From: Candidatus Microgenomates bacterium
GTDB taxonomy: Bacteria > Patescibacteriota > Microgenomatia > Daviesbacterales > UBA10151
Assembly (NCBI GenBank): GCA_016182045.1
Contig: JACOYE010000007.1
Location: forward strand, 98,121 to 162,120
Reading direction: 5' to 3'
Length of the DNA: 64,000 nucleotides
Shown here piece after piece: positions 2,599 to 53,442 of the stretch; the first letter of the stretch is position 1; each line of letters begins with the position of its first letter. The notes below the pieces were generated by a model. The model searched no databases, was not told the origin of the DNA, and saw only the letters and a program-made list of their open reading frames with translations. Both the position numbers and the translations under genes were made by a program.

Positions 2599-3471
2599 CT
2601 AATTATTACCTATTTTCCAAATCCCCTTTTCTCTAAAAGCAGGTATTGTCTGTCTTTTTGCAGCATTTAAAATAACCGGCACCGGCTTATTAATTTTCGT
2701 AGCATATTCACTAGCTTCAATGATTTTGCTTCCCTTAAGATAAGCAATTCTTTTATGTAAAGCTTCCATCAGGGCAAGCGAAACTATTCTTTCCATTATT
2801 TTTGTTATTCTTTTATCACGATATTCACCAAAAGAACGGTAATAGATTTGTTTTTCTTTATCACGAATAATTATCCCGGGGAAACCTAATTTGTATAATT
2901 GATAATTTATCAATACCCTACCTATCCTACCGTTACCGTCATTAAAAGGATGAATTGTCTCAAATTGCAGATGGAATTTAGAGATATTGTCCACAAAATA
3001 ACTTATATGATCGCTTGAATATTCAATTAAAGCCTTTTCTAGCAAACGTTCTACATGTTCCGGAGCAGTAGCAATAAAAGTTCCAATTCGCACATATTCT
3101 CCTTTTTTACGTAATCTGCCGGCAATGCCATCATCAATATTGCCAATCAACATTTGATGCAAAAGCAAGATAATATCTTTGGATAGCTCCTGTGAAGATT
3201 TATTGTGGATATATTCCATAACCCTAGCCAAATTCTTAGCCTCATATACCTCATGCAGGCTGACATTTTTCGATACCTCCATCTCTAAAAGTATCTTTTC
3301 TGTTTCTTTAAGAGTGAGGGTAGAATTTTCTATCGCATTTGAGTTATAGACACTTTCAGGGATTTCAGCTTCATCAATAATTTTAAGTAATGAACCTTTG
3401 CTAATCTTTAACCGATCATACTCTTTTTTAAGAATTTCAATTCTTTTTTGAAAGGAAGTAGAAGTTGACAT
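2599..3471 (-). CDS. Fic/Doc family protein (AMPylation-type Fido domain)
   Basis: canonical HPFNDGNGRIGR Fic motif. Confidence 0.8.
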   Translation of the reverse strand: MSTSTSFQKRIEILKKEYDRLKISKGSLLKIIDEAEIPESVYNSNAIENSTLTLKETEKILLEMEVSKNVSLHEVYEAKNLARVMEYIHNKSSQELSKDIILLLHQMLIGNIDDGIAGRLRKKGEYVRIGTFIATAPEHVERLLEKALIEYSSDHISYFVDNISKFHLQFETIHPFNDGNGRIGRVLINYQLYKLGFPGIIIRDKEKQIYYRSFGEYRDKRITKIMERIVSLALMEALHKRIAYLKGSKIIEASEYATKINKPVPVILNAAKRQTIPAFREKGIWKIGNN

Positions 3472-3488
3472 AACTTAAATATTATACC

Positions 3489-3556
3489 AAATTCACGTTA
3501 TTTTGTCAATTTAGCGTGAATTTAGAGTATTTTGCGGTATAAATTCACGTTATTTG
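3489..3556. promoter_or_regulatory. operator-like 16-bp motif AAATTCACGTTATTTK (two direct copies 52 bp apart plus an inverted half-site at 3513-3526) in the Fic-1 upstream region
   Basis: seen directly: 3489-3505, 3541-3556 direct; AGCGTGAATTT inverted at ~3513. Confidence 0.4.
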
Positions 3557-3618
3557 TGCTCCCTAATCCTAGTTTTAATCGATCTGATAATTTGAATTCA
3601 ATTCAAAGGACTTTTCAG

Positions 3619-3652
3619 AATCCTGTATGTTTACACTGAGTTTATCGAAGTG
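3619..3652. repeat. R-family intergenic repeat, copy R6 (AATCCTG..GTTTACACTGAG..CGAAGTG) immediately 3' of the HTH-Fic gene
   Basis: matches R1 (38690-38780) core GTTTACACTGAAGCG..GCGAAGTGCTTG. Confidence 0.5.
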
Positions 3653-3677
3653 TTCGTTTTTTTACAACAGATTAAAA

Positions 3678-4733
3678 TTATCTAAAATAAGTCTCGTTGG
3701 CAAACTTAATCTGTTCTATAAACAACTTTTTGATTTCATAAATACTTTCCTGCTCGTAAAACAAAATTAAAGCCTTTTTAAATTCATCTTCATCAACACT
3801 GCGATATGAAAGTGGATATAAATCGTAAGCAAGTAGAATCGCATTTGTCAGCATTCTGGCAGTTCTTTTGTTACCATCTGCATACGGCTGAATATAAGGC
3901 ATCATAAAATGAACAATCAGCGCTTTTTCAAAAGGGCTTTTGACCTTGTTTACAACATTAATTGTTTTTTCAAAAACCTCTTTTGTCTGATGTTCATTAT
4001 CAAGAGGATGATAAGTTGTTCCGGTAATTCCCACTGCTTGTTTTCTGATACCAGAGGAAATCCCCAACCCTTTAGTTAAAATATTGTGCAGCTGATTAAT
4101 TCCTGAAACAGAAATAGTTTTAAAATCATTTTTTGCTTTTAGTATTTCTTCAAAAGCTGCTTTGTGATTAAGAATCATCATTGCCTCATCTTTACTCTTA
4201 CCAGCTGCTTCTTTTTGTTCCTTAATTAAAGACTCTGTTTCTAAAAGCGTGTAAGTATTGCCCTCAATTTTGGATGATTTCCAAGACAATTCAATGACAA
4301 ACCTTTCTAATTCCCTTTTCAAAAGGTCAGGACTTAGTTTCATCGTCTGTTCTCTAAAACTTAGTGCCACTTTCTCTAAGGTGTTTATTTCTTCCGGCGT
4401 CAATAAATCATGCAAGTTTTTAAATATCTCAAAATCAAATGATTTTCTGGCACCAATTCTATTGTCTGGATCATCGGCGAAATATCTTTCAAGGTTAAAC
4501 TCGCGAAGAAGCGGGTTTTGAACTTTGGAAAAATATATTGTAGCTCTAGCCTTTCCTGTTACACTAACCAGTTTTTTAATCAATAAAACATGAATATCTC
4601 TTATAACGGTTGGCTTTGAAACGGGATATAATTTAGAAACTTTTTCTTGAATTTCCTCCCTAAGAAGTCCTTCTGATTGGTTAATTACATTAAGAATGTA
4701 TTTTTGTCTTGTAGTTAATATCGTATCATTCAT
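3678..4733 (-). CDS. Fic family protein with N-terminal winged-helix/HTH-like region
   Basis: variant Fic motif HFMMPYIQPYADGNKRTAR; N-terminal region resembles DNA-binding wHTH (KPTVIRDIHVLL). Confidence 0.65.
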   Translation of the reverse strand: MNDTILTTRQKYILNVINQSEGLLREEIQEKVSKLYPVSKPTVIRDIHVLLIKKLVSVTGKARATIYFSKVQNPLLREFNLERYFADDPDNRIGARKSFDFEIFKNLHDLLTPEEINTLEKVALSFREQTMKLSPDLLKRELERFVIELSWKSSKIEGNTYTLLETESLIKEQKEAAGKSKDEAMMILNHKAAFEEILKAKNDFKTISVSGINQLHNILTKGLGISSGIRKQAVGITGTTYHPLDNEHQTKEVFEKTINVVNKVKSPFEKALIVHFMMPYIQPYADGNKRTARMLTNAILLAYDLYPLSYRSVDEDEFKKALILFYEQESIYEIKKLFIEQIKFANETYFR

Positions 4734-4813
4734 ATATATTATCGTATCATATTGAGACGATATGTCAAGTATTAAATCTGTCCAAAATATTAGTTTGAGT
4801 AAGCAATATCTGG

Positions 4814-4842
4814 CTCCGTATTCCTAGGATTAATCGAACTGG
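4814..4842. repeat. 25-28-bp near-palindromic repeat CCGTATTCCTAGGATTAATCGAACTG, copy 1
   Basis: three copies at 4814-4842, 5668-5695, 6294-6318, each in an upstream region of a minus-strand transcription unit. Confidence 0.6.
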
Positions 4843-4957
4843 ACGATTTGATTGTAATATAAAGACTTTCTTCTAACAAGAACAGCAGCTTAGAGTTTCC
4901 TAATAATTATTAAACTGCTAATTTAGCAGTTAAACAAAATAAGCAGTTTCAAGGGGA

Positions 4958-5620
4958 TTATTTATTCTTCCCAGGTTTAGGAGTGGGGGTAGGTTGGGCA
5001 AACCAATCTATTAAGCCGTTATAAAGAGACTGAGCAATTTCCTGTTGTCTCGTCCCTGTACTATTGCTTAAAAGGGTACATTCGGTCGTGTTTGAAATAA
5101 AAACTGTTTCTTGGATAGTTGCAGGCATATTTACTTTAAGTAATACTCCTGATGCAAAATTTGTTACTCCTAAATCAGATACTCCTAATTCAGTTGCCAA
5201 ACGAGCATGAATTCTTTCTGCAAATGCCTTATCCTTATTAAGTTTTCCATACAATCCTAAAGTTCCGTTCTTGGAATGATCTATGGAACCGTTAAGATGG
5301 ACTGAAACTAGAGCTTCACCACCAAAGTTGTTGGCAAAAGTATAACGGTCATTATTTGATTTGTAACTATCATCTGTTCTAGTCATACCCACAATTGCTC
5401 TATCAGTTTCTAAAAGAGTTTTTAATTTATTAGCAATCTGTAAGTTAGCATCTGCTTCGGTTAAAGTAGGACAAGCAGTTGAACCTAAATCTGTTCCACC
5501 ATGTCCGGGATCAATAACGATTTTATGGCCTGTAACCGGAGAAACAGCAAGTGTAGTTTGAGGAAGGAAAGCAAATAAAGCAAAAAGAAATAATACGAAA
5601 ATGCTTGTTCTTTTAAGCAT
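4958..5620 (-). CDS. N-acetylmuramoyl-L-alanine amidase (Amidase_3 family), secreted
   Basis: signal peptide then IVIDPGHGGTDLG motif typical of Amidase_3. Confidence 0.75.
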   Translation of the reverse strand: MLKRTSIFVLFLFALFAFLPQTTLAVSPVTGHKIVIDPGHGGTDLGSTACPTLTEADANLQIANKLKTLLETDRAIVGMTRTDDSYKSNNDRYTFANNFGGEALVSVHLNGSIDHSKNGTLGLYGKLNKDKAFAERIHARLATELGVSDLGVTNFASGVLLKVNMPATIQETVFISNTTECTLLSNSTGTRQQEIAQSLYNGLIDWFAQPTPTPKPGKNK

Positions 5621-5667
5621 AATTCTAGTCTATCACAAATTCTTTTGGTTAGATTAATAAATTCGAG

Positions 5668-5695
5668 CTCCGTATTCCTAGGATTAATTGAACTG
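5668..5695. repeat. CCTAGG-centred repeat, copy 2
   Basis: CTCCGTATTCCTAGGATTAATTGAACTG. Confidence 0.6.
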
Positions 5696-5706
5696 CCGTA
5701 GAAAAA

Positions 5707-5967
5707 TTATTCACTTGCAGATTGGTGAAGAATAGAGGAAGCAAGTGTTTGATAAGGAATTCCCTGTTTGACAGCTTTAGCTTTTAGCTTATACAGATCC
5801 CGTTCAGATAGTCTGATATTAATATTCTTGGTTTTATTCAGAGTATTCCTAGCAATCTGCATTAATTCCTTTTTGCGCTTAGTAAAATTTTTAACCGATT
5901 TCCATTCACCTCTTTCAATCTCTGCTAAAAGTTGTTTCTCCTCATCATCTAATTCATAATATTTCAT
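5707..5967 (-). CDS. brnA: BrnA-like antitoxin (type II TA)
   Basis: small protein adjacent to BrnT-like gene; YELDDEEKQLLAEIERGEW N-terminus typical of BrnA/COG3514 family. Confidence 0.65.
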   Translation of the reverse strand: MKYYELDDEEKQLLAEIERGEWKSVKNFTKRKKELMQIARNTLNKTKNINIRLSERDLYKLKAKAVKQGIPYQTLASSILHQSASE

Positions 5968-5969
5968 AA

Positions 5970-6254
5970 TTACTTCTTCTCACCTCCATATAAATATTTT
6001 TTAGTTGCTTTCCGAGAAGGAAAGATAGTTTTTAAAAAAATCTTTTCTTCGTCTTCTACATAAGGAACATAGTAAGCATAATCATCTATCTCAACTACAA
6101 GAATTCTTTGATTAGGATAACGCTTTTTATTTGGATGTTCAAAATCATCTAATACTCTTCCCTCTTCAATAGCTGTTTGAACATCTTCGAATGAAATCTC
6201 CCTTAGTGCTTTTAAAAGAGCACTCTTCTCTTGATCCCAATCAAAGTATTTCAC
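5970..6254 (-). CDS. brnT: BrnT-like toxin (DUF497 ribonuclease toxin)
   Basis: MKYFDWDQEKSALLKALREISFEDV... resembles BrnT N-terminus; 3-nt gap to BrnA gene. Confidence 0.7.
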   Translation of the reverse strand: MKYFDWDQEKSALLKALREISFEDVQTAIEEGRVLDDFEHPNKKRYPNQRILVVEIDDYAYYVPYVEDEEKIFLKTIFPSRKATKKYLYGGEKK

Positions 6255-6293
6255 TTTAGTATTTTATGACAAATCATATCATTTGTCAATATG

Positions 6294-6318
6294 CCGTATT
6301 CCTAGTATTAATCGAACT
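6294..6318. repeat. CCTAGG-centred repeat, copy 3 (CCTAGTATTAATCGAACT variant)
   Basis: CCGTATTCCTAGTATTAATCGAACT. Confidence 0.55.
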
Positions 6319-6365
6319 AAAAATTTAGTCACATTACACACCTCCAGGGGGTGTTAGGAAATGTA

Positions 6366-6728
6366 TTACTTAACTAAATTTAAAATTTCAGCTTTTAATT
6401 TTTCAGGAGCCTCTAACCCCTTAAATGGTATTCCATGAATATCATTCCCTGCAAATATATAGATATCTCCGTAGCCAAATATTTTACCCAAAACTCCCCG
6501 TCTGACAGTTACCGTATTAATTTTCTGGAAAGGTATTTCAATATCTGTAGATGTCAGGATACCTTTTTTCATAAGCACACCTTTAGGAGTGATGGTAATA
6601 AAATTTCTGAGGTATTCTATTATGTGTATAGGGAAAAGAAAAAAGCCGATTACTATACTCATGAGGAGAAAGTCTATAAATAGCGAGACAGCTAATTTAA
6701 CAGCTGATTGCCGATATATTTTTTCCAT
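6366..6728 (-). CDS. membrane protein with bacterial PH (bPH_2/DUF304-like) domain
   Basis: N-terminal TM helices followed by ITITPKGVLMKKG...TVTVRRGVLGKIFGYGDIYI pattern typical of bPH_2. Confidence 0.45.
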   Translation of the reverse strand: MEKIYRQSAVKLAVSLFIDFLLMSIVIGFFLFPIHIIEYLRNFITITPKGVLMKKGILTSTDIEIPFQKINTVTVRRGVLGKIFGYGDIYIFAGNDIHGIPFKGLEAPEKLKAEILNLVK

Positions 6729-6766
6729 ATTTGAATCTTACTATACTATATTACTTAAATTGAAAT

Positions 6767-6958
6767 TCAAGAATCCAATACAATTTCCGCTTTCTGTTTC
6801 AACCTACTTAAAGCAGAATTAAAACTCGATCCTTGGGCTTCAAGGGAAAGACTATCAAAAGTACCATATGCCTTATAACGAGTACCCTTAGCTCTACCAG
6901 CCTGTTCAACAACATAGCATTCGTAATCTTTAAAGAAAACAGCTATCTTTGTTTTCAT
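6767..6958 (-). CDS. hypothetical small protein
   Basis: 63-aa ORF between HNH gene and bPH gene; no recognisable motif. Confidence 0.25.
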   Translation of the reverse strand: MKTKIAVFFKDYECYVVEQAGRAKGTRYKAYGTFDSLSLEAQGSSFNSALSRLKQKAEIVLDS

Positions 6959-6961
6959 TTG

Positions 6962-7975
6962 TTAACTTTTAATCATTGCATCAAAAACAAAAGGACTATT
7001 CTTTGAAAGAGCTAATGATTGAAAATATTCAAGAGTATTAATCATAGCATCGTTTACTTCATAAATAAATTTTTTGGATGCGATTTTTTCATTACCAACC
7101 AAAACAAAAAGTTCTCCTACTAACTCACCTTTCTCAATTAATGAGAGTTCAAAATTCTCAAATTCAATTGTCAAACGTGTAGAGTCTGCAGTGTTTAAAA
7201 TTATCGGGAATCTTGTAGTATAATCCGGTTCCCTAGAACTGTTTGGATTGATTTTAAAGAATTTTTTAAAATGAACTATCCCATTATTTAATCTTACGTA
7301 GGAACCTTTAATAACTGCAGGCTGTCCATGATTATTAGTAACTGCAAACTCTAGTTGTATTCTTGTTCCAGGTAATTCTGGGCTTTTAACTATACCCATG
7401 AATGGGCTAAGAGTTATAGAAACCTTGTCATCAAATGGAACATTCCCTGATTTTTCTGCTTCAATTTCTTCTCCTCCGGTGACGATTGTATCTGGAATCT
7501 GCGGACTGGGTGTAGCCATATAAATATTGTTTATTATATAACTGTCTCCTTCTTTAATTTCTACTTTGTTATTCCCTAAATTGGTAGAACCTAATGAGGG
7601 ATTGAGTGGTTCTAGATTTAATATAGATCCCTCATGGTCTTTTTTCATTTTCTTCAAAGTTTCCAAGGTGTATTTTATTGGATCATCATCTATTTCTTTA
7701 TGACAACTTTTACATAACCAAATTCCATTTTTAATATCACTTCTTTCCTCAGAAGTCATTTTGGAATTATATCTAGCAGAGGTAGGTTGAGCTCCTTCAA
7801 TATGAGCAGCATCACCTACAATGGTTGCCTTTGTTGGAATGGCATTTCCACCGCTCGTATGTCTTTTGCATTTAGAACAAACCTGACCCGCTCTCTTAGC
7901 TAAAATATCTTTTGTTGTTGTAGAAAAATCATTTGGATCAGATTTAACCATAGTTTTAGGTATATTAAGTGCCAC
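6962..7975 (-). CDS. HNH endonuclease domain protein with unknown C-terminal beta-rich domain
   Basis: CSKCKRH...HIEGAQP...NGIWLCKSCHKEID = HNH (CxxC..H..N..CxxCH) signature in first 110 aa. Confidence 0.55.
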   Translation of the reverse strand: MALNIPKTMVKSDPNDFSTTTKDILAKRAGQVCSKCKRHTSGGNAIPTKATIVGDAAHIEGAQPTSARYNSKMTSEERSDIKNGIWLCKSCHKEIDDDPIKYTLETLKKMKKDHEGSILNLEPLNPSLGSTNLGNNKVEIKEGDSYIINNIYMATPSPQIPDTIVTGGEEIEAEKSGNVPFDDKVSITLSPFMGIVKSPELPGTRIQLEFAVTNNHGQPAVIKGSYVRLNNGIVHFKKFFKINPNSSREPDYTTRFPIILNTADSTRLTIEFENFELSLIEKGELVGELFVLVGNEKIASKKFIYEVNDAMINTLEYFQSLALSKNSPFVFDAMIKS

Positions 7976-7976
7976 T

Positions 7977-8051
7977 TGGCTCCCCCGCGTGGATTCGAAC
8001 CACGAACCTCGATCTTAACAGGATCTCGCTCTACCATTGAGCTACAGGGGA
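7977..8051 (-). tRNA. tRNA-Asn (anticodon GTT)
   Basis: hand-folded cloverleaf: acceptor TCCCCTG/CGGGGGA, D arm GCTC-AATGGTA-GAGC, anticodon loop CTGTTAA, T arm CGTGG-TTCGAAT-CCACG, CCA encoded. Confidence 0.85.
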
Positions 8052-8297
8052 ATATATTAAGTTTTTAATGAACTCACGACCTCGATAACTTTTTAACTGT
8101 TTTTCTCTTCTTAGAGCCTCCACCCGACTGCCTAGCTCTTCTTTATGTACCAATACCCATTCTCCATCAAACCTAGCAGTATAACTATTCTTAAACTGCT
8201 TATCATTATGTAATTTAATTCTCTGATCTAAATTATCTGTTTGACCTATGTATATTTTATTGTGCTTCTTATTATAAACACCATAAACGTAAAACAT
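8031..8297 (-). CDS. GIY-YIG nuclease family small protein (3' end reads into tRNA-Asn)
   Basis: YVYGVY..IYIGQT (GIY-YIG motif) ... R..E; ORF stop TAG lies inside the tRNA D-arm (last codons SPVAQW* encoded by tRNA 5' end); likely start at MFYVYG (8297) rather than 8330. Confidence 0.6.
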   Translation of the reverse strand: MFYVYGVYNKKHNKIYIGQTDNLDQRIKLHNDKQFKNSYTARFDGEWVLVHKEELGSRVEALRREKQLKSYRGREFIKNLIYSPVAQW

Positions 8298-8310
8298 ATT
8301 TGTTCCCGCT

Positions 8311-8361
8311 CTACCTCCGCCATCCGCCAACCGGCGGAGGCGGAGAGCTACAGGGGAATAT
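8311..8361. repeat. GC-rich hairpin (CTCCGCCATCCGCC-AACC-GGCGGAGGCGGAG) followed by a 17-bp duplicate of the tRNA-Asn 5' end (GAGCTACAGGGGAATAT)
   Basis: 8345-8361 repeats 8038-8054 exactly; hairpin at 8311-8343. Confidence 0.6.
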
Positions 8362-8484: not shown

Positions 8485-9396
8485 ATGGTTAGTTTGAGAA
8501 AATTGGCTTCTTATCAAAAACATGTCTTCTTTTCTGCTCTTCTTATCATGGGTATCATTTTAGGTAGTTTTTTAGATGGTAGATTAACAGCAGTTAAAGC
8601 AAATCCTGAATCTAAAACTTTTGAAATTAAGCTTAGACAATTTGTGAAGGAGCGAACTAATCAACAAGTCAGTCATATATCAATCTATTTCCTTGATCTG
8701 AATAATAACTTTGATGCTGGAGTCAATGAGAAGTTTGAATATGACATTGCCAGTTTAGTTAAACTACCTACAATGATGGCTTTATTTAAAAAAGCCCAGT
8801 CAGATCCTCAATTTCTCAGTAAGACCATAATTTATTATAGAAAGTCCTCAGATAATTTAAGACAAAATATGGCACCAGCAAAAGAATTAGAAAATGAGAC
8901 AGTCCTAACCGTGGGGGAGTTAATTGACAGGATGATCGTTTTTTCAGATAACCAAGCTTACAATCTGCTTTTGGCAAATATTGATGACGATATTGTTAGA
9001 AAGGCATTCAAAGATTTAGGGATTGATTTGCCTGATCAGGAAAACGCACAAATGTATATGTCAGCAGAAAAATATGCCACAGCTTTTTTAAAAGTCTTAT
9101 TTAACGGGTCATATTTAAATAAAGAGATGTCTGAAAAAGCTTTAGGACTATTAATGCGGACTAACTTCAAAGATGGCCTAACGCCAGGCTTACCTACCTC
9201 AATTAAAGTAGCTCATAAATTTGGAGAGCGCTCTTGGGATAAAATTTCCACCAAACAGTTACATGATTGCGGGATCATTTATTACCCAAATCATCCTTAC
9301 TTACTTTGTGTAATGACCAGAGGAAATAGTTTTGAGGCTCAAAGTCAGATTATCAAAGATCTTTCCGAGATAGTTTATAACTTGATAAAAACTTAA
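8485..9396 (+). CDS. class A beta-lactamase-family serine hydrolase (PBP-like)
   Basis: SLVK (SxxK), SDN, KFG(E) motif triad in the expected order; N-terminal TM/signal. Confidence 0.55.
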   Translation: MVSLRKLASYQKHVFFSALLIMGIILGSFLDGRLTAVKANPESKTFEIKLRQFVKERTNQQVSHISIYFLDLNNNFDAGVNEKFEYDIASLVKLPTMMALFKKAQSDPQFLSKTIIYYRKSSDNLRQNMAPAKELENETVLTVGELIDRMIVFSDNQAYNLLLANIDDDIVRKAFKDLGIDLPDQENAQMYMSAEKYATAFLKVLFNGSYLNKEMSEKALGLLMRTNFKDGLTPGLPTSIKVAHKFGERSWDKISTKQLHDCGIIYYPNHPYLLCVMTRGNSFEAQSQIIKDLSEIVYNLIKT

Positions 9397-13752: not shown

Positions 13753-14844
13753 CTATTCCAGATAATCCCTCAATTTCTTAGCCCTAGTTGGATGTTTTAA
13801 TTTTCTGATGGCTTTGGCCTCAATCTGTCTGATTCTTTCCCTGGTTACTCCAAATTCTCTTCCCACCTCTTCCAAAGTTCTTTGTTTACCATCCTCTAAC
13901 CCAAAGCGAAGCTGCAACACCCTTTTTTCTCTGGGAGAGAGTGAATCCAATACCTCATCCAGGTGAATTTTTAAAAGTTCTCTGGTGGCTTGCTCGTCCG
14001 GCTGCAACCCCTGATCAGCAATAAAATCTCCCAGGTGGGAATCTTCCTCATCACCAACAGGTGTTTCCAAAGAGGTTGGTTCTTGTGAAACTTTGATAAT
14101 CTCTCGGGCCTTAATCTCATCTATCCCCAGCTCTTTGGCCACTTCCTCAGGGGTTGGCTCTCTACCCAACTCCTGCATTAACCTTCTTTGAGTCCTGTTA
14201 AAGCGGTTTATGGTTTCCACCATATGAACAGGAATCCTGATGGTTCTGGCTTGATCGGCAATGGCCCGGGTGATGGCCTGTCTAATCCACCAGGTGGCGT
14301 AGGTGGAGAATTTATAACCTCTTCTCCAATCATACTTGTCAACTGCTCTCATCAGTCCAATGTTTCCCTCTTCAATTAAATCCAAAAGGCTCATGCCTCT
14401 GCCCACATATTTTTTGGCAATTGATACCACCAACCTTAAATTGGCAGAAGTCAACTTATCCCTGGCAATCTTAACTCCTTTTTCTGCTTTTTTGGCCAGC
14501 TCTATCTCATCTTGGGCTGTCAAAAGAGGAATTTTGCCAATATCTCTTAAGTATTGTCTAACCGGATCGGTTACTGATCCTTCCTCCAAAGTGGTCAAAA
14601 GTTCCAGCTCTTTTTCTAACTCTGTGGCTGATTTGGAATCTGCTTCCAACTCTTCTGCCGTGGTCTCAAAAACATCTATACCTGTCTCAATCAACTTAAT
14701 ATAAAATAGATCAAGCTCCTCAATGGTTTCCTCTGGCTTGGGAAAAACCTGCAAGATCTCTTCTTGGGTGACAAAACCTCGATTCTTTCCCAGTTTGAGA
14801 AGTTTTTTAACATCCAGTTGTACTTCCTTCTTTTGTTTAGCCAT
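13753..14844 (-). CDS. rpoD: RNA polymerase sigma-70 factor RpoD
   Basis: regions 1.2, 2 ([16 protein letters not shown]), 3, 4 ([23 protein letters not shown]) all present. Confidence 0.9.
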
Positions 14845-14881
14845 ATGATTAAGAGTCTAGTCGCTAGAATCTAGACACCAC

Positions 14882-16660
14882 TTATAGATTCTTCAATTTA
14901 ACAGATAGATCCCTAAACCTCCTGTTTAAGATCTCTATCACCTCCATCTTACCAAACTCTTGGGCATTCTTAATTTCATACGATAATTTTTCCAAAGAAG
15001 CCTTAATTAAGGCTTTCTTAAGCTCGGATACCACTCCATTGACCTCTTTCTGCCAATGAGTAGGATCAGAAAGTTTACTATCAATCTCAGTTAAATATAA
15101 CCTATCAACTTCTCCCACCATCTCCTCAGGTAATGTGGAGACAAACTCATTGATACCAAAGGCTTTACTCTTAAAAGAAATTGAGTCCAGGTACAAAACC
15201 AAAAGCACAAATAGATGCCTAAACAACTCTTTTAAGAATAAAGTCTCAGGAAAGGAAGGTACAAAATTGGCCTCAGGTGGGATATGCAGTAGCAACGCCA
15301 TTAAATATTCTTCCAAAAGCTCACGTCTGGTTTTGGTATTAACCACATTATCCTGGGTACTGGTTGGTTTAAAAACTTTGATAAAACTCGATTGAGATTT
15401 TCTTACCCTGTCCACTGCCTCTCTAATCACCTTATCATCTGTTTTGATAAAAGCGGACAACTTTTGAATATAACGCTCTCTCACCAAATCATCGCTAATT
15501 TTTCCCCAAAGAGGAATTAACTCCTCACCAATCTTTTTCAAATCAGCCGCACTTTTAAGATCAAATCTGTTAGAGATGGAGGTTAAATAATAATCGTAGA
15601 TGGGAGTAGCTTCAGTGATGGCTTTTTGCCAAATCTTTGGATCTTCTAAAACTGCTTCTGCAGCATCCTTACCTGCCTCAATTTGGATGACTTTGATATT
15701 TAAACCAGCTTTGTCTGCCAATTCAATCCCTCTTCTTGCAGCTGAATCACCTGCCAAATCCATATCAAAACAAAGGCTGACAGTATCAGTCAGTCTTTTA
15801 ATCAGTTCTATTTGACCTTCGGTTAAAGCAGTGCCTTTTGAGGCCACCACATTCCTGACACCTGACTGAAAAGAAAGTATAGCATCCATCTCTCCCTCCA
15901 CTAAAATGGCCTCTTTTTTGCTTCTGATTTCAGACTTTGAAAGATTAATACCAAAAAGAAAACTGCCTTTATCAAAAATTGGTGTTTGGGGAGTATTGAT
16001 ATATTTGGGTTCGGCAGGAAAAAGGATCCTGCCGGAAAAGCCTCTCAGTTTATCTTTACCATCAATAAGAGGAAAAGTGATCCTGCCTCTGAAACGGTCA
16101 TAAATAGAAGATTTTGAAGGCACTCCCAAACCAGAGGTGATGATTTCCTGATAAGTAAAACCTCTTTTTAATAAAAACTTGGTCAAAGACTCCCAGGAGT
16201 TGGGGGCATAGCCAATGCCAAATTGTTCAATGGAAGAACCACTCACTCCTCTGCTATTTAAATATTTCAAAGCTTTCTTGCCTAAGGTATGCTTTAGCAA
16301 AATATAGTGGAAGAATTCCTGAGCCTTTAAGTTAACCTCAAACAGTCTGTCGCGAAAATCTTTCCTCTCAGCTGATCTTTTTAAAACAACACCGGCTCTT
16401 TTGGCCAAAGCCTCAAGCGCCTCTTTAAACTCCATCCCTTCTTTTTCCATTAGAAAAGTAAAGTGATCTCCGCCCTTTTGGCAACCAAAGCAATGCCAAA
16501 TTTGTCGCTCAGGAGAAACTACAAAAGAGGGGGTTTTCTCGCTATGAAATGGGCAAAGAGCCTTAAAATTTATACCTGCTTTTTTTAAAGGGAGATATTC
16601 TTGTATTAAATCAACAATGTTGATCTTTTGCTTAATCAGTTCTGTTTCGTCCATAGCCAT
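14882..16660 (-). CDS. dnaG: DNA primase DnaG
   Basis: zinc-binding CPFHSEKTPSF...CFGC, Toprim domain; immediately upstream of rpoD (macromolecular synthesis operon order). Confidence 0.9.
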   Translation of the reverse strand: MAMDETELIKQKINIVDLIQEYLPLKKAGINFKALCPFHSEKTPSFVVSPERQIWHCFGCQKGGDHFTFLMEKEGMEFKEALEALAKRAGVVLKRSAERKDFRDRLFEVNLKAQEFFHYILLKHTLGKKALKYLNSRGVSGSSIEQFGIGYAPNSWESLTKFLLKRGFTYQEIITSGLGVPSKSSIYDRFRGRITFPLIDGKDKLRGFSGRILFPAEPKYINTPQTPIFDKGSFLFGINLSKSEIRSKKEAILVEGEMDAILSFQSGVRNVVASKGTALTEGQIELIKRLTDTVSLCFDMDLAGDSAARRGIELADKAGLNIKVIQIEAGKDAAEAVLEDPKIWQKAITEATPIYDYYLTSISNRFDLKSAADLKKIGEELIPLWGKISDDLVRERYIQKLSAFIKTDDKVIREAVDRVRKSQSSFIKVFKPTSTQDNVVNTKTRRELLEEYLMALLLHIPPEANFVPSFPETLFLKELFRHLFVLLVLYLDSISFKSKAFGINEFVSTLPEEMVGEVDRLYLTEIDSKLSDPTHWQKEVNGVVSELKKALIKASLEKLSYEIKNAQEFGKMEVIEILNRRFRDLSVKLKNL

Positions 16661-16764: not shown

Positions 16765-16853
16765 GGCGGTGGGAGTGGGATTCGAACCCACGATACCTTA
16801 CGGTATACGAGCTTTCCAAGCCCGCGCACTAGGCCAGACTATGCGATCCCACC
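16765..16853 (-). tRNA. tRNA-Ser (anticodon GGA), long variable arm
   Basis: hand-folded: acceptor GGTGGGA/TCCCACC, anticodon loop TTGGAAA, 16-nt variable arm, T arm GTGGG-TTCGAAT-CCCAC. Confidence 0.8.
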
Positions 16854-16950
16854 AGGCTTTTGCAATTATAACCTAAGGTTGTATTCTCATTCCATCGTAA
16901 GCAGGTTGAGCTTTGGGGCAGATTTTTTTGCATCTTAAGGAGCAGGAAGA

Positions 16951-17352
16951 CTATTTTAACATCTCGCGAGCTTTTTTTAAAAGGACTTTGTCCTGAGAAA
17001 AAGTTAATTGTTTTAAAGCATCCTTTACTTCATACCAGCCAGCTTCTTCAACCTCCCAATCATGCAGAGAGGGATCACCTGAAACATATTTCATTAAAAA
17101 ATAAGTAACCACCTTAAAGATTTTCTCTCCATTTAGGATATATACATATTTGGAATAACCAACCTTATCCAAAATTTCAGCTTCCACTCCACCTTCTTCC
17201 CTTACCTCACGAACAGCAGCTTGTTGAGATGTCTGTCCTGGATCAATCAAACCCTTAGGAAAACTCCAATGATGATTTTGAGAATGCTTGGTCAAAAGCA
17301 CTTGACCCTGACTATTGAAAACAATCCCTCCTGCGGAAAATTCACGTTTCAT
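16951..17352 (-). CDS. NUDIX hydrolase
   Basis: Nudix box GLIDPGQTSQQAAVREVREEGGV. Confidence 0.8.
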   Translation of the reverse strand: MKREFSAGGIVFNSQGQVLLTKHSQNHHWSFPKGLIDPGQTSQQAAVREVREEGGVEAEILDKVGYSKYVYILNGEKIFKVVTYFLMKYVSGDPSLHDWEVEEAGWYEVKDALKQLTFSQDKVLLKKAREMLK

Positions 17353-17603
17353 CTGTAAATATCCTTTCTGTTATCCACATCATGAATTACTAAAATTTCA
17401 TCCTCAGCATCAAATGCCACTCTATAATCTCCTATTCTAAATCTGTATTGCCCTAAATCACTACGGGTTAATGGCTCCGCAAAATCCAAGGGGTCTTCCT
17501 GTGTACAAAAATAGTCTAATTTGGCGATAATTCGAATCTGAATTTCTTTGGGTAACTTTTTAAACCTCCTCAGAGAACTTTTAGTAAACTGGTAGTCAAA
17601 CAT
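17349..17603 (-). CDS. RelE/ParE-family toxin
   Basis: 84 aa, YRFRIGDYRVAFDAEDEILVIHDV matches RelE/ParE C-terminal pattern; overlaps antitoxin gene by 1 nt. Confidence 0.65.
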   Translation of the reverse strand: MFDYQFTKSSLRRFKKLPKEIQIRIIAKLDYFCTQEDPLDFAEPLTRSDLGQYRFRIGDYRVAFDAEDEILVIHDVDNRKDIYR

Positions 17604-17884
17604 TATGCTATTCCCAACATCTTCTTAACTTGGGCAGAAGAATATCTGACCTTATCAACTCTTGATTTTGCTATTCTTTTCAAATAGTTTTCAGAAGACA
17701 TTGCTTCCAGATCCTCTAAGAAGGATTCCCAAACGCGATTAGGCACCAATACTCCCACAGGCTTATTGTTTCTCATTACTCTGACAAATTTTCCATTTTT
17801 TTCAGCTTTTTTGAAAACTTTGGTCAAACCTGCCTGGGCTTTTTGGATGCTGGTAAAGTCTTCATTAGCAATCAATTGTGCCAT
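17603..17884 (-). CDS. Phd/YefM-like antitoxin
   Basis: 93-aa partner directly upstream of RelE-like gene. Confidence 0.5.
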   Translation of the reverse strand: MAQLIANEDFTSIQKAQAGLTKVFKKAEKNGKFVRVMRNNKPVGVLVPNRVWESFLEDLEAMSSENYLKRIAKSRVDKVRYSSAQVKKMLGIA

Positions 17885-17917
17885 ATGTAATAATTATTAC
17901 AGAATCCTTACAGAATG

Positions 17918-17970
17918 TCAATGGTTAAAAACAATTCCACCAGCACTAAATTCCCGTTTCATATTTGGAG
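17918..17970. repeat. diverged duplicate of the NUDIX gene 5' end (encodes MKREFSAGGIVFN on minus strand)
   Basis: rc of 17918-17970 = ATGAAACGGGAATTTAGTGCTGGTGGAATTGTTTTTAAC vs real start ATGAAACGTGAATTTTCCGCAGGAGGGATTGTTTTCAAT at 17352. Confidence 0.6.
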
Positions 17971-17988
17971 TAAATTTTATGCTAAACT

Positions 17989-18708
17989 TTATATTTCTAC
18001 AATCGCTGATACGGGTAGGTGATCTGACCCTTCTGAATCTTTAACTCTGAATGAGCGTACTCTGATATCTTTACTGACAAAAATATAATCTAATCGATGC
18101 CGCAACTTTGTTTCCGCAAATCCCTCGACATTAAATGGATAGACTGTCCATGTTGGAACTGTTAAATTCTGATCAGCATTAACCATAACTTGATTTAGCT
18201 TGGTCACAATTAAACTGTCGGGGTGGGAATTGAAATCACCCATCAGGATTGCTCTTGCAGAAGGAAGCAGTTTTATTAAATTATCTACCTGTAGATTGCG
18301 CATCTTTGATTCTTTAAATTGATGAGAATAAGCCAGATGGACAGTAAAAACTGTCAGCATATTATTTCCCGTGTTAATTTTAGCTTCCACTGCAATCCGT
18401 GGTTCTGTCTCTGCTGTATTCTTATATAAACTCAAACCACTCAACTTGTGAAATATACTCTTTGCTATTGGATATCTACTCAAAATAGCATTCCCCTGCG
18501 GATATCCTAAACGGGTTTGATCCACGGCCCGGTGATAGCTACATTGATAACCAAGCTCTTTGGCAATAACAGCAGCAGTATTAGTTCCATCTTTTTCTAT
18601 GGCCTCTTGTAACCCGATGACATCAGCATTATTCTGCTTTAAAAAAGAAATTATCATCTTTAGATGATGGCCTTGCCAAATATTCCAGGAGACAACTTTA
18701 ATCTGCAT
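17989..18708 (-). CDS. endonuclease/exonuclease/phosphatase (EEP) family protein
   Basis: WNIWQG..., GDFNSHPDS, SDHLPV motifs. Confidence 0.75.
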   Translation of the reverse strand: MQIKVVSWNIWQGHHLKMIISFLKQNNADVIGLQEAIEKDGTNTAAVIAKELGYQCSYHRAVDQTRLGYPQGNAILSRYPIAKSIFHKLSGLSLYKNTAETEPRIAVEAKINTGNNMLTVFTVHLAYSHQFKESKMRNLQVDNLIKLLPSARAILMGDFNSHPDSLIVTKLNQVMVNADQNLTVPTWTVYPFNVEGFAETKLRHRLDYIFVSKDIRVRSFRVKDSEGSDHLPVSAIVEI

Positions 18709-18767
18709 AATTTGTTTATGATTATACCATTGACAATTTATTGTAATACTATAAAATAGGTATTACT

Positions 18768-19040
18768 ATGCAGATACAACCTACTACTGTAACTCAAAAG
18801 GGACAAGTCACCATTCCCTCTCCCATCAGAAGGGCCCTCGGATTAAAACGCGGGGATCAAGTTCAATTTACTATTACCAAAAAAAAAGTAGTTCAATTAA
18901 AGTCAGCTAAAAAATTCTCCATTATGTCTCTTTATGGTTCTTTAAAACCCAAGATTAAGCCAAAACTCTCCGGTCAGAAGCTAATTAAATGGGAAAAAGA
19001 AATGGCTCACCAAGCATGGGCGGAGCAAGCTAACAAATGA
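18768..19040 (+). CDS. AbrB/MazE(SpoVT)-type antitoxin (VapB-like)
   Basis: N-terminal swapped-hairpin pattern KGQVTIPSPIRRALGLKRGDQV; overlaps PIN gene by 4 nt. Confidence 0.6.
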   Translation: MQIQPTTVTQKGQVTIPSPIRRALGLKRGDQVQFTITKKKVVQLKSAKKFSIMSLYGSLKPKIKPKLSGQKLIKWEKEMAHQAWAEQANK

Positions 19041-19435
19041 TCTTCATTGATTCTAATGTAATTATCAGGTTTGTTTTAAATGATAATCCGAAACTTTCAG
19101 CTAAATCTTATCAGATACTAAAACAGATAGAAAATGGTGCTAAAGTTTATCTTGCACCAATAATTTTGGCTGAGATAGTTTATGTACTGTTAAAAGTATA
19201 CAAACTGGGAAAAACAGAAATCAAAAATAAAGTCTTACCTGTTGTAATGATGGAAAATATTAATATGGAAAAGAAGGATATTTTACCCAGGGCATTTGAA
19301 TTTTTTGTATCTAAGAATGTTGATTTTGAGGATGCATACTTAGCTGCCTTAATGGAGAAAAAACAAATTAAAAAACTTTATTCTTTTGATGAGGATTTTG
19401 ATAAATTTCCCCAAATTGAAAGACTAGAAGGTTAG
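19037..19435 (+). CDS. PIN-domain toxin (VapC-like)
   Basis: MIFIDSNVIIRF... conserved acidic residues (D5, E..., D at FDED). Confidence 0.7.
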   Translation: MIFIDSNVIIRFVLNDNPKLSAKSYQILKQIENGAKVYLAPIILAEIVYVLLKVYKLGKTEIKNKVLPVVMMENINMEKKDILPRAFEFFVSKNVDFEDAYLAALMEKKQIKKLYSFDEDFDKFPQIERLEG

Positions 19436-19441
19436 TAATAG

Positions 19442-19527
19442 CGGAGGCGGGAGGATTCGAACCTCCGTGGGACTTTCGCCCCGATAGTTTTCGAAACTAT
19501 TTCCTTAAGCCACTCGGACACGCCTCC
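19442..19527 (-). tRNA. tRNA-Ser (anticodon CGA)
   Basis: hand-folded, anticodon loop TTCGAAA, long variable arm. Confidence 0.8.
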
Positions 19528-19529
19528 TC

Positions 19530-19605
19530 TGGCGCCCCCGGGGCGAGTCGAACGCCCAACCACATGGACCGCAACCATGCGTTCTATCCATTGAACTACG
19601 GGGAC
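19530..19605 (-). tRNA. tRNA-Arg (anticodon GCG as read)
   Basis: hand-folded: D arm GTTC-AATGGATA-GAAC, anticodon stem CATGG/CCATG, loop TTGCGGT, T arm GGGCG-TTCGACT-CGCCC, CCA encoded. Confidence 0.7.
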
Positions 19606-19624
19606 AACACGGGTATTTTAGCAT

Positions 19625-19672
19625 TTGGAATGTGAGATTGCCACGTCACCTGCGGTGACTCGCAATGACAGA
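19625..19672. repeat. S-family repeat, inverted left-half copy (GTGAGATTGCCACGTC...CTCGCAATGACAGAGG)
   Basis: rc matches 21217-21258 (TTTGTCATTGCGAGG...GACGTGGCAATCTCAC). Confidence 0.55.
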
Positions 19673-19676
19673 GGAG

Positions 19677-20270
19677 TTATCTATGAATATTTTCCAAAGG
19701 GAAATGTTTTTGCAGTCCTTCCGACCATTTTTCCATCCAGGATTTGAAGGGCACTTCCACAAAAGGTAAGAATCTGGCCACAATCTTTTTCACCTGTTCC
19801 TCACCCTGTCCTGAGCTTGTCGAAGGATCCAAAACCAGCATTAACTGTCCGGGAAATCTGAGTCTTGTTTGGATGATTAAAATTTTATGATTTTCTTTTT
19901 CTTTAAACCAAAATGAATCCAAAAAATGCCAGAAATAGAAATCCTCACCAATGGTGATGCCTTGAGTAGAAATTCTATATTTTATATCATGCGGTGGAAC
20001 AAATGCCAAAACATAGGCCACAAATGTCAAAGCCAAAAGTACCCCAATCAGTAAAAATTCCCTGGCCAAAAGCAAAATTAGGATCAAAAGAATAACTATG
20101 ATGGCGATAGTGGTGTAAAAGGAGCGGTCTTTTCTCCTAAAGGGGCGGGCAGGTGCTTCCCAGGAAAGTAAGGTTTTAACCTCCCCTGCTTCCATGATTT
20201 TGGGGTGAAGGGGTCCTGGTTCAGAGCCAGCTGGTTGCTTTTTAGTTTGTTTTTTTTCTTCCTTGGGCAT
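19677..20270 (-). CDS. hypothetical membrane protein
   Basis: 197 aa, Lys-rich N-terminus, two TM helices. Confidence 0.4.
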   Translation of the reverse strand: MPKEEKKQTKKQPAGSEPGPLHPKIMEAGEVKTLLSWEAPARPFRRKDRSFYTTIAIIVILLILILLLAREFLLIGVLLALTFVAYVLAFVPPHDIKYRISTQGITIGEDFYFWHFLDSFWFKEKENHKILIIQTRLRFPGQLMLVLDPSTSSGQGEEQVKKIVARFLPFVEVPFKSWMEKWSEGLQKHFPLENIHR

Positions 20271-20307
20271 TTTCTTTAGTGTAATCCTAAAAACCTACTC
20301 TGTAAAG

Positions 20308-20397
20308 TGGCGGAGGGGGTGAGATTCGAACTCACGGTGACATTGCTGCCACAGTGGTTTTCAAGACCACCGCTCTAGGCCACTAAGCGACCCCTCC
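20308..20397 (-). tRNA. tRNA-Ser (anticodon TGA)
   Basis: hand-folded, loop CTTGAAA, long variable arm, CCA encoded. Confidence 0.8.
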
Positions 20398-20487
20398 TGG
20401 CGGAGAGGGTGGGATTCGAACCCACGATACCCTTACGGGTATAGCTCGTTAGCACCGAGCGGCACTCGACCACTATGCGACCTCTCC
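20398..20487 (-). tRNA. tRNA-Ser (anticodon GCT)
   Basis: hand-folded, loop GTGCTAA, long variable arm, CCA encoded. Confidence 0.75.
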
Positions 20488-22364: not shown

Positions 22365-23561
22365 CTAGCGAATAAAATCTAAGTAGTTCTCCTGGTTAAT
22401 CAGTTGCACTGTTGTTCCATATTCACTGGTAAAGGACTTTGAACCCTTACTCAACAAACCAGTTCCATATTTAAACTCAAATGCCTTTAGCTCCTCATTG
22501 ATGGGTTTTTCTATGTAATCTACCTCTGCTCCTGAATAGCTTCTCCAAAAGTTGGACTCAATACTTTTCCCTTGATTGGCAAATCTCTTTTTTCTTTCAA
22601 CAAAGAGAAAGTTCTCCCATAAAAATCCTGCATCAGCTCTTAAATCAATAGAATTGAAGTCACCAATTAAACTATTCCTAATACCCAAATCTACAAAATA
22701 GATTTTATAACGGCTGCCAATTTCCCTTCTGGGGTTTTTGGAGTAAGGATGGGCACTGACAACTACATAAGATTTTTCTAAAATATCCAGGTAACTAACC
22801 ACTGTCTTCCTGTCTATCTTAAGTCTGTTTGACAGCTCATTCTCGTTAACCTCTGAACCAATCTGATAAGCCAGAGCCTTTGTTAAATCTTTAATAGCTT
22901 GGGAATTTTTAACCCGGGCAAATGCCAATATATCCTTAAAAAGGTAGCTTTCCACAATCCGCTCAAGAAGGGATTGTTTTTGTTCGGGCGTATTTGATAG
23001 ATAGACTTCTGGATATAAACCATAAAGCATTACTTGTGGCAACAGGGCGTCTGCTTCATTTTTAAGTATTACCTCATGAGTGTCTCCTGCTTGCAAGGCT
23101 TCAGTAAACGAAAAAGGGTATAAAGTAAAATCTAGATAACGTCCAGTTAACGGATCACTAAGTTTATTCTTTAAATCAAAACTGGAAGAACCCGTTGCCA
23201 GCACTCGTACTTTCGGAAAATTATCATAAATAATTTTTAATGTCAGTCCTGGATTATCCAGCCATTGAGCCTCGTCAATCAACAAAACATCAACCTCTGA
23301 GAGTAATCTTTCTAAGATTGCCTTTGAGTTGGTGTTTACCGCTGCATTATCCTCTGCTAAATCACAGTTTAGGTATAACACCCTCTTACCTTCTCCTTCC
23401 AGCCTTTTGCTAATGTCTTTAGCTAAAGTGGTTTTACCAACCTGTCTAGCTCCCAGCACCAAAATAATCTTTCCAGATGATTTTAGACTTGAGAATATCA
23501 AATTTTCAATTAATCTTGGTATCATAATCCCAATATTAATACTAATTCTGGGATTTGTCAA
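22365..23561 (-). CDS. AAA_14-type ATPase with DUF4143-like C-terminal domain (COG1373 family), paralog 1
   Basis: Walker A GARQVGKTTL, Walker B LLIDEAQ; same architecture as 38781..40091 and 40951..42210. Confidence 0.7.
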   Translation of the reverse strand: MTNPRISINIGIMIPRLIENLIFSSLKSSGKIILVLGARQVGKTTLAKDISKRLEGEGKRVLYLNCDLAEDNAAVNTNSKAILERLLSEVDVLLIDEAQWLDNPGLTLKIIYDNFPKVRVLATGSSSFDLKNKLSDPLTGRYLDFTLYPFSFTEALQAGDTHEVILKNEADALLPQVMLYGLYPEVYLSNTPEQKQSLLERIVESYLFKDILAFARVKNSQAIKDLTKALAYQIGSEVNENELSNRLKIDRKTVVSYLDILEKSYVVVSAHPYSKNPRREIGSRYKIYFVDLGIRNSLIGDFNSIDLRADAGFLWENFLFVERKKRFANQGKSIESNFWRSYSGAEVDYIEKPINEELKAFEFKYGTGLLSKGSKSFTSEYGTTVQLINQENYLDFIR

Positions 23562-53440: not shown

Positions 53441-53442
53441 CT

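Follow-up and report, generated by a model that had tools for sequence, protein, structure and literature searches.

Why should one short, almost invariant sequence stand in successive intergenic gaps of a bacterial chromosome, each time upstream of a different gene unit? The question is raised by a stretch of DNA from a Candidatus Microgenomates bacterium (contig JACOYE010000007.1, positions 98,121-162,120), a member of the candidate phyla radiation (CPR); the whole stretch of 64 kb is called the window (W) below. A 17-mer, GTATTCCTAGGATTAAT, has two exact occurrences there, at 4818-4834 and 5672-5688, and a third at 6296-6312 that differs in one base, and at least three matches to it arose in 0 of 100 dinucleotide-preserving shuffles of the window. 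A preliminary description had reported three copies of a near-identical repeat upstream of consecutive units. The repeat is real, and there are four copies, a more diverged one at 3557-3587 having been overlooked. All four lie on the plus strand, antisense to the genes and in direct orientation, within 2.8 kb (3557-6320), and a position-weight scan found no fifth copy anywhere in the 64 kb and none in shuffled sequence. The conserved block is 29-31 bp long and reads CAGTTCGATTAATCCTAGGAATACGGAGC on the coding (minus) strand; three of the copies (R1, R3 and R4 below) carry a further 25-40 nt of family-conserved sequence, the arm, beyond the block.

We think it highly probable that the repeat is the crossover-proximal 29 bp of an orphaned large serine recombinase (LSR) gene end, equivalent to the P half of an attP site, and that the window holds an array of four integrase-less cassettes anchored at a tRNA-Asn gene. 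At the level of sequence, this reading is carried by the repeat family and its sharp boundary, the exchange of flanks between the repeat and tRNA-Asn, the identity of the repeat as LSR 3′ coding sequence, the presence of LSRs on tRNA-Asn and the identity of cassettes across species. The minus-strand order is tRNA-Asn (8051-7977), ORF337, ORF63, bPH protein, R3, BrnT/BrnA, R2, Amidase_3, R1, HTH-Fic, R4 and Fic-290, where R1-R4 are the repeat copies, leaders are the sequences that follow a junction, and all features are on the minus strand:

7977..8051 (minus): tRNA-Asn (GTT), found by ARAGORN; Rfam tRNA, 62.8 bits.
7959..7976 (minus): X-type leader AGTGGCACTTAATATACC, directly after the tRNA-Asn, with an inverted arm CTTAATATACCT 12 nt past the junction.
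6366..7958 (minus): cargo of cassette 0, ORF337 (weak HNH_2 match), ORF63 and a bPH_2 protein (Pfam).
6294..6345 (minus): R3, block 6294-6320 with a 25-nt arm at 6321-6345; reverse reading CRIPSINRTKNL.
5707..6293 (minus): BrnT/BrnA toxin-antitoxin cassette (Pfam); promoter scan 11/12, -35 box at 6289; putative palindromic operator TGACAAATGATATGATTTGTCA at 6267-6288.
5647..5696 (minus): R2, block 5666-5696 with a Z-type leader CGAATTTATTAATCTAACC at 5647-5665; inverted arm 9/12; internal attP-like junction.
4958..5620 (minus): Amidase_3 (N-acetylmuramoyl-L-alanine amidase) cargo (Pfam, 3.5e-36).
4792..4880 (minus): R1, block 4812-4842 with an arm at 4842-4880 and a Y-type leader at 4792-4811; inverted arm CTTACTCAAACT, 10/12.
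3678..4768 (minus): HTH-Fic cargo (Pfam); promoter scan, -35 box at 4768; palindrome TATCGT...ACGATA.
3557..3623 (minus): R4, block 3557-3587 with an arm at 3588-3623; variant subtype common to loci L006 and L013; reverse reading LPNPSFNRSDNL.
2599..3509 (minus): Fic-290 (Fic domain, 290 aa; Pfam); 12/12 consensus promoter; three ACGTGAATTT repeats.

The copies occupy consecutive intergenic gaps, each upstream of a minus-strand unit as first described, but the distance from repeat to start codon is ~40 bp for BrnT, 48 bp for the amidase, 81 bp for HTH-Fic and 86 bp for Fic-290, not the 60-120 bp then given. R1 is nearest the family consensus and is the best-preserved attP-like site in the window (reverse reading WLRIPRINRTGRF). 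R3 stops right after ...ACGG, having lost the AG and the leader arm, and abuts the -35 box of BrnT. R4 is the terminal copy; it has no leader arm and is attR-like. Fic-290, just distal to this last copy, may be backbone or an older insertion.

The repeat belongs to a family. A scan of one genome per species, plus metagenomes, placed the motif in 42 further loci (18 from genomes and 24 from metagenomes), and three matches look like chance; related CPR and metagenome loci compared with the window are labeled L001-L055. The hosts are nearly all CPR bacteria of the Candidatus Daviesbacteria/Levyibacteriota type, together with metagenome-assembled genomes (MAGs) labeled otherwise. The family consensus is TCAGTTCGATTAA-NN-CTAGGAATACGGAGCC, in which NN (GA, AA, TC or TA) are the bases that form CCTAGG in the window. 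Conservation ends sharply at ...ACGG^AG(CC), where the caret marks the break, and the flanks beyond this end are reassorted between loci. On its other side, the motif stands 10-120 bp beyond the stop codon of a co-oriented upstream gene, whereas the gene downstream is found in both orientations. In ~10 distinct genomes a tRNA-Asn gene lies upstream of the motif and co-oriented with it. In L022 five direct copies stand behind the tRNA-Asn.

In three of these ~10 genomes the tRNA-Asn carries a group I intron. The intron (Rfam RF00028, 65-68 bits), seen in several Daviesbacteria, sits in the anticodon loop (oriented coordinates: L016, 5891-6106; L018, 869-1066; L023, ~2683 onward), and because it interrupts this loop the split tRNA genes were missed by ARAGORN. 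The intron-bearing tRNA-Asn still acts as an array anchor.

The boundary of the motif is also the boundary at which it changes places with the tRNA. Depending on the genome, each of three leader families follows either a genuine tRNA-Asn 3′ end or the motif. The X leader follows the window tRNA-Asn (GGGGGAGCCA^AGTGGCACTTAATATACC) and follows the 29-nt motif in L001 and L018; it is also found behind two other GAGCCA junctions in L015. The Y leader, GATAGTTCTTAC.CGAACT, comes after tRNA-Asn in L012 and L016 and after the motif in L005 and at window R1, and the Z leader, CGAATTTTCTTAATCTAACC, after tRNA-Asn in L013 and L018 and after the motif at window R2. Base-by-base comparison places the homology breaks at ...ACGG^ for window R3 against L037 and at ...ACGGAG^ for R2 against L002, while the ORF337 cassette begins at GGAGCC^ when the window is compared with L001. 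All three independent pairs (W-R3/L037, W-R2/L002 and W-tRNA/L001) thus break within GG^AG^CC. The ~20 nt at the 3′ terminus of tRNA-Asn (GGTTCGAATCCACGCGGGGG^AG) appear to be the B half of attB and to anchor the array.

The leaders contribute a second, symmetric feature. Each holds an inverted copy, CTTAATCGAACY, of the outer arm of the motif, AGTTCGATTAAG, 11-12 nt past the junction. This inverted arm is present at 9/9 tRNA junctions and at internal array junctions, with 8-11 of 12 positions matching against a background mode of 6. The resulting sites measure ~49 bp for the motif type and ~44 bp for the tRNA-Asn type, and the difference lies in the spacing of one element: counted from the last G before AG, GTTCGAWT stands at 17-24 in the motif and at 12-19 in tRNA-Asn, where it falls in the T-loop. 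In the LSR systems the motif bound by the zinc ribbon domain (ZD) is at 16-24 in attP and 5 bp nearer the center, at 11-19, in attB (PMC3783163). The shift between the motif and tRNA-Asn arms, within a short site of ~40-50 bp, therefore matches the established attP/attB arrangement of large serine integrases. The motif is not a duplicated tRNA 3′ end of the kind that forms the repeats of tyrosine-integrase islands, as GTTCGA and GGAGCC(A) are all that the two have in common, and the interval separating these elements has 5 nt more in the motif.

Further junctions of the form G(A/G)GAGCC, followed by X- or Z-type leaders, were observed in L001 (~1040), L010 (~2200), L004 (~7180), L015 (~1142) and L006 (~990; all oriented coordinates). 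To the left of the junction they bear no relation to the 29-nt motif, and the hotspot therefore has more attachment-arm types than this one.

What, then, is the motif made of? Motif and arm together show third-position variation and codon periodicity and fit best a single reverse frame, with 329 synonymous to 553 non-synonymous changes, and the 40-100 nt upstream of the motif are likewise conserved, whatever the neighboring gene. The reverse frame is open, with an excess of synonymous change, in more than 50 copies and encodes (N)WLR(N/I)P(S/R)(F/I/L)N(R/L)TD..IIKAFQNPIWAEQARERLKQIKLLTK..., followed by a stop. A profile of this peptide retrieves 41 small predicted open reading frames (ORFs), which are conserved only from the junction (LR.P) onward. 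The four copies in the window translate as truncated tails of 10-20 codons, that of R2 containing a stop. A forward-strand small ORF ending in GGATTCTGA was considered and rejected; it is open for 13-46 codons only, often lacks a start and has fewer synonymous changes than the reverse frame.

The body to which the tail belongs is found in L054. A second-family LSR there (Resolvase, Recombinase and Zn_ribbon_recom domains) ends ...KLTLQNLELKGKKARYD at a TGA and, read in frame past this codon, continues as INPFDKIAFYASRQAWLRNPSINLT..IIKAFQNPVWAEQARERLKQIKLLTRATVA to a stop (...AWLRNPSINLT..), for a total of 532 aa. The peptide P0054 aligns to residues 462-531 of this protein with 86% identity (E 1e-41) and has a Trp at the position of the TGA. 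Family 2 is large, with 1,961 database members at E ≤ 1e-40, and the tails were read on the best 120 of the 1,961. Nearly all of these share ...PFD.I.NYA.RQ.WL(P/R), then either stop or continue as (R/G)xDSN(L/Q/H)(E/Q)P, which is a tRNA T-loop reverse-translated; the window tRNA-Asn reads WLPRVDSNHEP, the tail of P0143 and P0166. A few uninterrupted members keep a homologous tail of ~45 residues.

Two loci join these observations. A family-2 LSR gene in L055 overlaps tRNA-Asn, and their junction reads ...GGGGGAG^CCAAGCTTGACGAGAGGCGTA. L054 has this element-side CCAAGCTTGACGAGAGGCGTA joined to the motif instead, ...GGATTACGGAG (...ACGGAG). One element-side half is thus connected to the host site in one locus and to the P half in another, as the X, Y and Z leaders are in the arrays. 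Because L054 and L055 share this element-side sequence, the motif is best read as the P half of an attP located inside the integrase gene, with the tRNA-Asn 3′ end as the corresponding half of attB.

LSRs of another family use the same target. The L004 recombinase (family 1) has a 3′ end that overlaps the motif, and its 45 close homologues are from CPR bacteria of the Microgenomates group. The family-1 gene overlaps the 3′ end of a convergent tRNA-Asn in 4/4 contexts with readable DNA and lies at the edge of elements that also encode an XRE-type repressor and an HTH_17/MerR excisionase-like protein. Integrated serine recombinase genes overlap the tRNA-Asn 3′ end in L044-L048 and in L055. An LSR gene at the element edge is linked to the motif in both L054 and L004. 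An L004-type recombinase was nonetheless rejected as the owner of the motif tail, as its frame is off by one, the element-side arms of its homologues differ and their far ends lack the motif; a BLASTP comparison of P0059 with the family-1 C-terminus was non-significant (E 2.7), and the link came through L054 instead. Recombinase pseudogene remnants behind the terminal copies were also looked for with tblastn, which matched only the translated motif.

These elements can be assembled into a mechanism. In Daviesbacteria and other Microgenomates-group CPR bacteria, LSRs would integrate mobile elements at the 3′ end of tRNA-Asn, and in one very large LSR family attP would lie inside the 3′ end of the integrase gene. 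Crossover would take place at the Trp-Leu-Arg/Pro codons (TGG CTC CGT), ~45 codons before the natural stop. Integration would then cut the integrase gene, leaving its body beside the tRNA (attL) with a short tail encoded by the tRNA and its last ~45 codons at the far end of the element (attR). Having lost only these ~45 residues, the integrated enzyme probably stays catalytically intact. Each cassette would follow one plan, with a leader bearing the inverted outer arm, its own promoter and a repeat at the end, and the cassettes of the window (ORF337/bPH, BrnTA, amidase and HTH-Fic) would have entered successively at the end of the tRNA gene, through an LSR acting in trans. Both R1 and R2 may have kept their competence for recombination.

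The cassettes themselves have traveled. The nucleotide identity of ORF337 to L001 is 93.5%, with homology starting from the GGAGCC junction, and that of bPH plus R3 to L037 is 92.5%. BrnTA directly followed by the motif recurs in L002, L006, L012 and L014, and BrnA plus R2 recurs in L002. HTH-Fic is 95% identical to its counterparts in L010/L038 and 97% identical to that in L006, a Levyibacteriota MAG, and a 78-nt block at R1 is 95% identical to L008, L024, L030 and L032, where it stands behind a different gene. Overall, window cassettes are 92-97% identical to those of other MAGs, compared with 75-84% for tRNA-Asn and msrA, which indicates that the cassettes were exchanged horizontally and recently.

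Several observations weigh against the interpretation of the repeat as an LSR gene end in an integrase-less cassette array. No encoded recombinase was found in the 64 kb of the window. The LSR of L054, the sole case contiguous with exactly this tail, has an in-frame TGA (4594-4596; TGG in a relative), which could reflect a pseudogene, a sequencing error or recoding; the uninterrupted family-2 homologues have tails more diverged from that of the motif, and a profile search with the tail returned small ORFs only. At the far ends of the intact LSR elements examined, there is no motif within 8-10 kb, and for this reason family 1 shares the tRNA-Asn target with the motif but not the arm. Resemblance between the LSR's own P′ sequence and the three leaders (X, Y and Z) ends after the first ~8 nt. 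Modules have also been swapped at gene boundaries, HTH-Fic being preceded by a Y leader here but by an X leader in L010, so that recombination of other kinds also shapes the island. The motif and tRNA-Asn are inverted relative to each other in L024 (motif 258-282, plus; tRNA 8854-8928, minus) and in L049 (motif ~3671-3695, minus; tRNA 4811-4883, plus), which suggests that inversions between att-type sites also occur. Finally, canonical LSRs recombine attP with attB only and attP × attL is forbidden (PMC3783163); repeated insertion beside an occupied tRNA is not expected under this rule.

The last point bears on how the array was formed. There is a small chance that CPR bacteria of the Microgenomates group have an integron-like, serine-driven system of cassette capture at tRNA-Asn, in which minimal cassettes with attP-like sites of ~50 bp are inserted serially by an integrase acting in trans. 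Insertion next to a resident integrase gene would then restore the native C-terminal tail, as in L054, and tail exchange could switch the activity or directionality of the integrase. A different history, in which the copies are dead remnants of full-size recombinase elements with deleted interiors and the array arose by homologous or illegitimate recombination between blocks of ~75-130 nt, is in our judgment unlikely, yet it is a serious partial rival for the formation of the array, though not for the identity of the repeat. The arms cut at differing left ends, the missing AG and leader of R3, the stop in the R2 tail, the module swaps at gene boundaries, the window without a recombinase and the prohibition of attP × attL (PMC3783163) all speak for such passive scars. 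The inverted arm, however, is kept at a fixed 11-12 nt even in internal junctions, suggesting selection for a functional half-site; the same cassettes, 92-97% identical across species, break exactly at the center of the site; and the tail frame has stayed open with its synonymous excess in the many copies counted above. An account in which the reverse-strand ORF (45-90 aa, ...LRNPSINLT..IIKAFQNPIWAEQARERLKQIKLLTK and stop) is a free-standing small gene, the repeat being its coding sequence, would explain why gene callers predict the 41 small ORFs and why frame, stop position and codon periodicity are conserved. It is scarcely credible, as the copies begin with unrelated N-termini and start codons and become similar exactly at the junction, the peptide matches the LSR C-terminus in frame with the LSR body, and the window copies are cut to 10-20 codons.

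The preliminary description had favored an operator, a site for a shared dimeric regulator such as the HTH of the Fic-2 protein, that would co-regulate the consecutive units. The intergenic placement upstream of minus-strand genes, the CCTAGG-centered near-palindrome of the window copies and an HTH-Fic gene adjoining the repeats invite this reading, which we regard as very improbable. The near-palindrome is present in the window and is absent as a feature of the family: most members have GACTAGG or AACTAGG, it is unconserved in ~45 related copies and by manual comparison the two arms agree at ~4-6 of 11-13 positions. As the two bases on which it depends vary across the family, the CCTAGG palindrome is incidental. 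Nor is there a fixed promoter position or a co-occurring regulator. In the three best matches of the region to sigma-70-type promoters, the -35 box is situated 0, 45 and 52 bp downstream of a repeat; in other loci the gene that follows can have either orientation, the repeat keeping its place behind the upstream gene's stop codon, and the motif occurs at many loci without an HTH-Fic gene. The repeat sequence is in any case accounted for as coding sequence of a recombinase gene end. Each of the three promoters, moreover, overlaps a palindrome or repeat of its own, and all three differ:

6261-6289 (minus): BrnTA promoter element, palindrome TGACAAATGATATGATTTGTCA.
4741-4768 (minus): HTH-Fic promoter element, palindrome TATCGT...ACGATA.
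3481-3540 (minus): Fic-290 promoter element, three ACGTGAATTT repeats.

These elements are probably the real, autoregulatory operators of BrnTA, HTH-Fic and Fic-290.

Other classes of repeat were rejected on their own merits. The preliminary description had also considered a small mobile element, and in one respect this was right, in that the repeat appears to be the remnant of a mobile-element attachment site. It is neither a repetitive extragenic palindromic (REP) sequence nor a miniature inverted-repeat transposable element (MITE): the four copies in 64 kb are confined to 2.8 kb, other genomes have 1-5 copies at the single tRNA-Asn hotspot, and there is no conserved structure. ARAGORN and Rfam, the latter in gathering and E-value modes, returned no tRNA or other RNA family at the motif, and RNAalifold on 19 copies gave a consensus fold of 0 pairs. 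With 0 conserved pairs and no Rfam match, attC-like, RNA and terminator readings are excluded; a decayed tRNA or tRNA-like RNA fails as well because no T-arm/acceptor fold is possible, and a hairpin present in some copies (GCCTTGAT..ATCAAAGGC) is unconserved. A further argument against an integron attC is that no tyrosine integrase was found in cis when the window and the array neighbors were screened by regex and their candidate ORFs by Pfam. A dif/pdif-type Xer site (11-6-11) does not fit copies that are direct rather than inverted pairs, at a locus ~50 kb from dnaA/dnaN and so near the origin, not the terminus; the likeness to a Firmicutes dif is partial and not colinear. A viral origin of the motif was rejected on 0 matches in viral_contigs.

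Comparison with known systems places the locus closest to the attP and attB sites of LSRs such as those of Listeria A118/LI, Bxb1 and φC31, with which it shares a site of ~50 bp, inverted outer arms and central exchange. The distal motif is likewise 5 bp nearer the center in the host half-site (17-24 versus 12-19 here; 16-24 versus 11-19 in PMC3783163). Also alike are an integrase gene at the element edge next to the site and an adjoining HTH_17/MerR excisionase-like gene. Unlike in canonical systems, the crossover here would fall within the coding part of the integrase gene, ~45 codons before its stop, and integration would swap the C-terminal tail; the element targets a tRNA 3′ end; and integrase-less cassettes with attP-like junctions stand in tandem, which strict attP × attB behavior does not predict. 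Genomic islands are known to grow at tRNA genes as integrative elements, and cis-mobilizable elements that lack an integrase, accrete in tandem. The window resembles them in direct att-type repeats that bound blocks, some without a recombinase, and in its toxin-antitoxin and Fic cargo, but its repeats have no more than GTTCGA and GGAGCC in common with the tRNA 3′ end and do not duplicate it, its blocks are of 0.6-1.6 kb with one or two genes, and the recombinase class is serine. Integron arrays are similar in having one- or two-gene cassettes in the same orientation, each ending in a conserved recombination-site element, and in the toxin-antitoxin cargo typical of chromosomal arrays; here there is no IntI tyrosine integrase, attI or attC hairpin, the cassettes have their own promoters and a tRNA gene is the anchor.

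For a site inside the integrase gene, the closest mechanistic precedent is the archaeal SSV family of 'suicidal' tyrosine integrases, whose recombination site is within the integrase ORF, so that the gene is cut in two on integration into a tRNA and an orphan piece stays at the opposite end of the element (PMC7253208). Intragenic site, tRNA target, split gene and orphan fragment all recur here. The SSV enzymes are tyrosine recombinases of archaeal viruses and plasmids and are inactivated by the split, whereas the present enzymes are serine recombinases of CPR bacteria from which only ~45 residues would be detached; the system is an analogue rather than a member. The literature searched holds no description of an intragenic attP for serine integrases or in CPR bacteria, and describes an intragenic attP with a tRNA target only for the archaeal 'suicidal' tyrosine integrases. 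New here is a serine-integrase att-site remnant that combines an intragenic attP, a tRNA-Asn target and tandem mini-cassettes.

An apparent regulatory motif thus becomes a marker of genome plasticity, which singles out a hotspot at which different species, uncultured and with genomes of ~1 Mb, exchange toxin-antitoxin, Fic and cell-wall genes. A very large serine integrase family, of ~2,000 database members, would have attP inside the integrase gene and a tRNA 3′ end as attB. Because attP, attB and the crossover region are legible from sequence, family-2 integrases are readily testable and could supply new orthogonal integrases. The tandem attP-like junctions, for their part, challenge a strict attP × attB rule.

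The surroundings of the array add some minor observations. Directly upstream of tRNA-Asn, with ~20 nt of overlap, is an ORF of 99 aa with a GIY-YIG nuclease domain (8031-8330, minus), and directly downstream is ORF337 with its weak HNH_2 match; the two may be homing-endonuclease-like genes connected with the hotspot. Two AAA_14/DUF4143 ATPase genes (22365-23561 and 40951-42210, minus) belong to the same family as cassette cargo in the L015 and L022 arrays. ORFs with T4SS_pilin and PrgI-family domains (28896-29903 and 45963-47009, plus) suggest that a type IV secretion apparatus, or one like that of conjugation, is encoded in another part of the window. Four tRNA-Ser genes (GGA, CGA, TGA and GCT) and a tRNA-Arg are clustered at 16765-20487 (minus), with two pairs abutting (19441-19605 and 20308-20487). 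The genes dnaN and dnaA (52325-55392, minus) are at the minimum of cumulative GC skew (~54 kb), from which genes diverge; the origin of replication is thus probably here, at a distance of ~46-50 kb from the array. Finally, the neighbors of tRNA-Asn at a distance of a few kb include rpoD and probably dnaG, in the window (13753-16660, minus) as in the distant, recombinase-bearing CPR loci L045-L049; the hotspot therefore occupies a single chromosomal locus that is conserved throughout the Microgenomates group.

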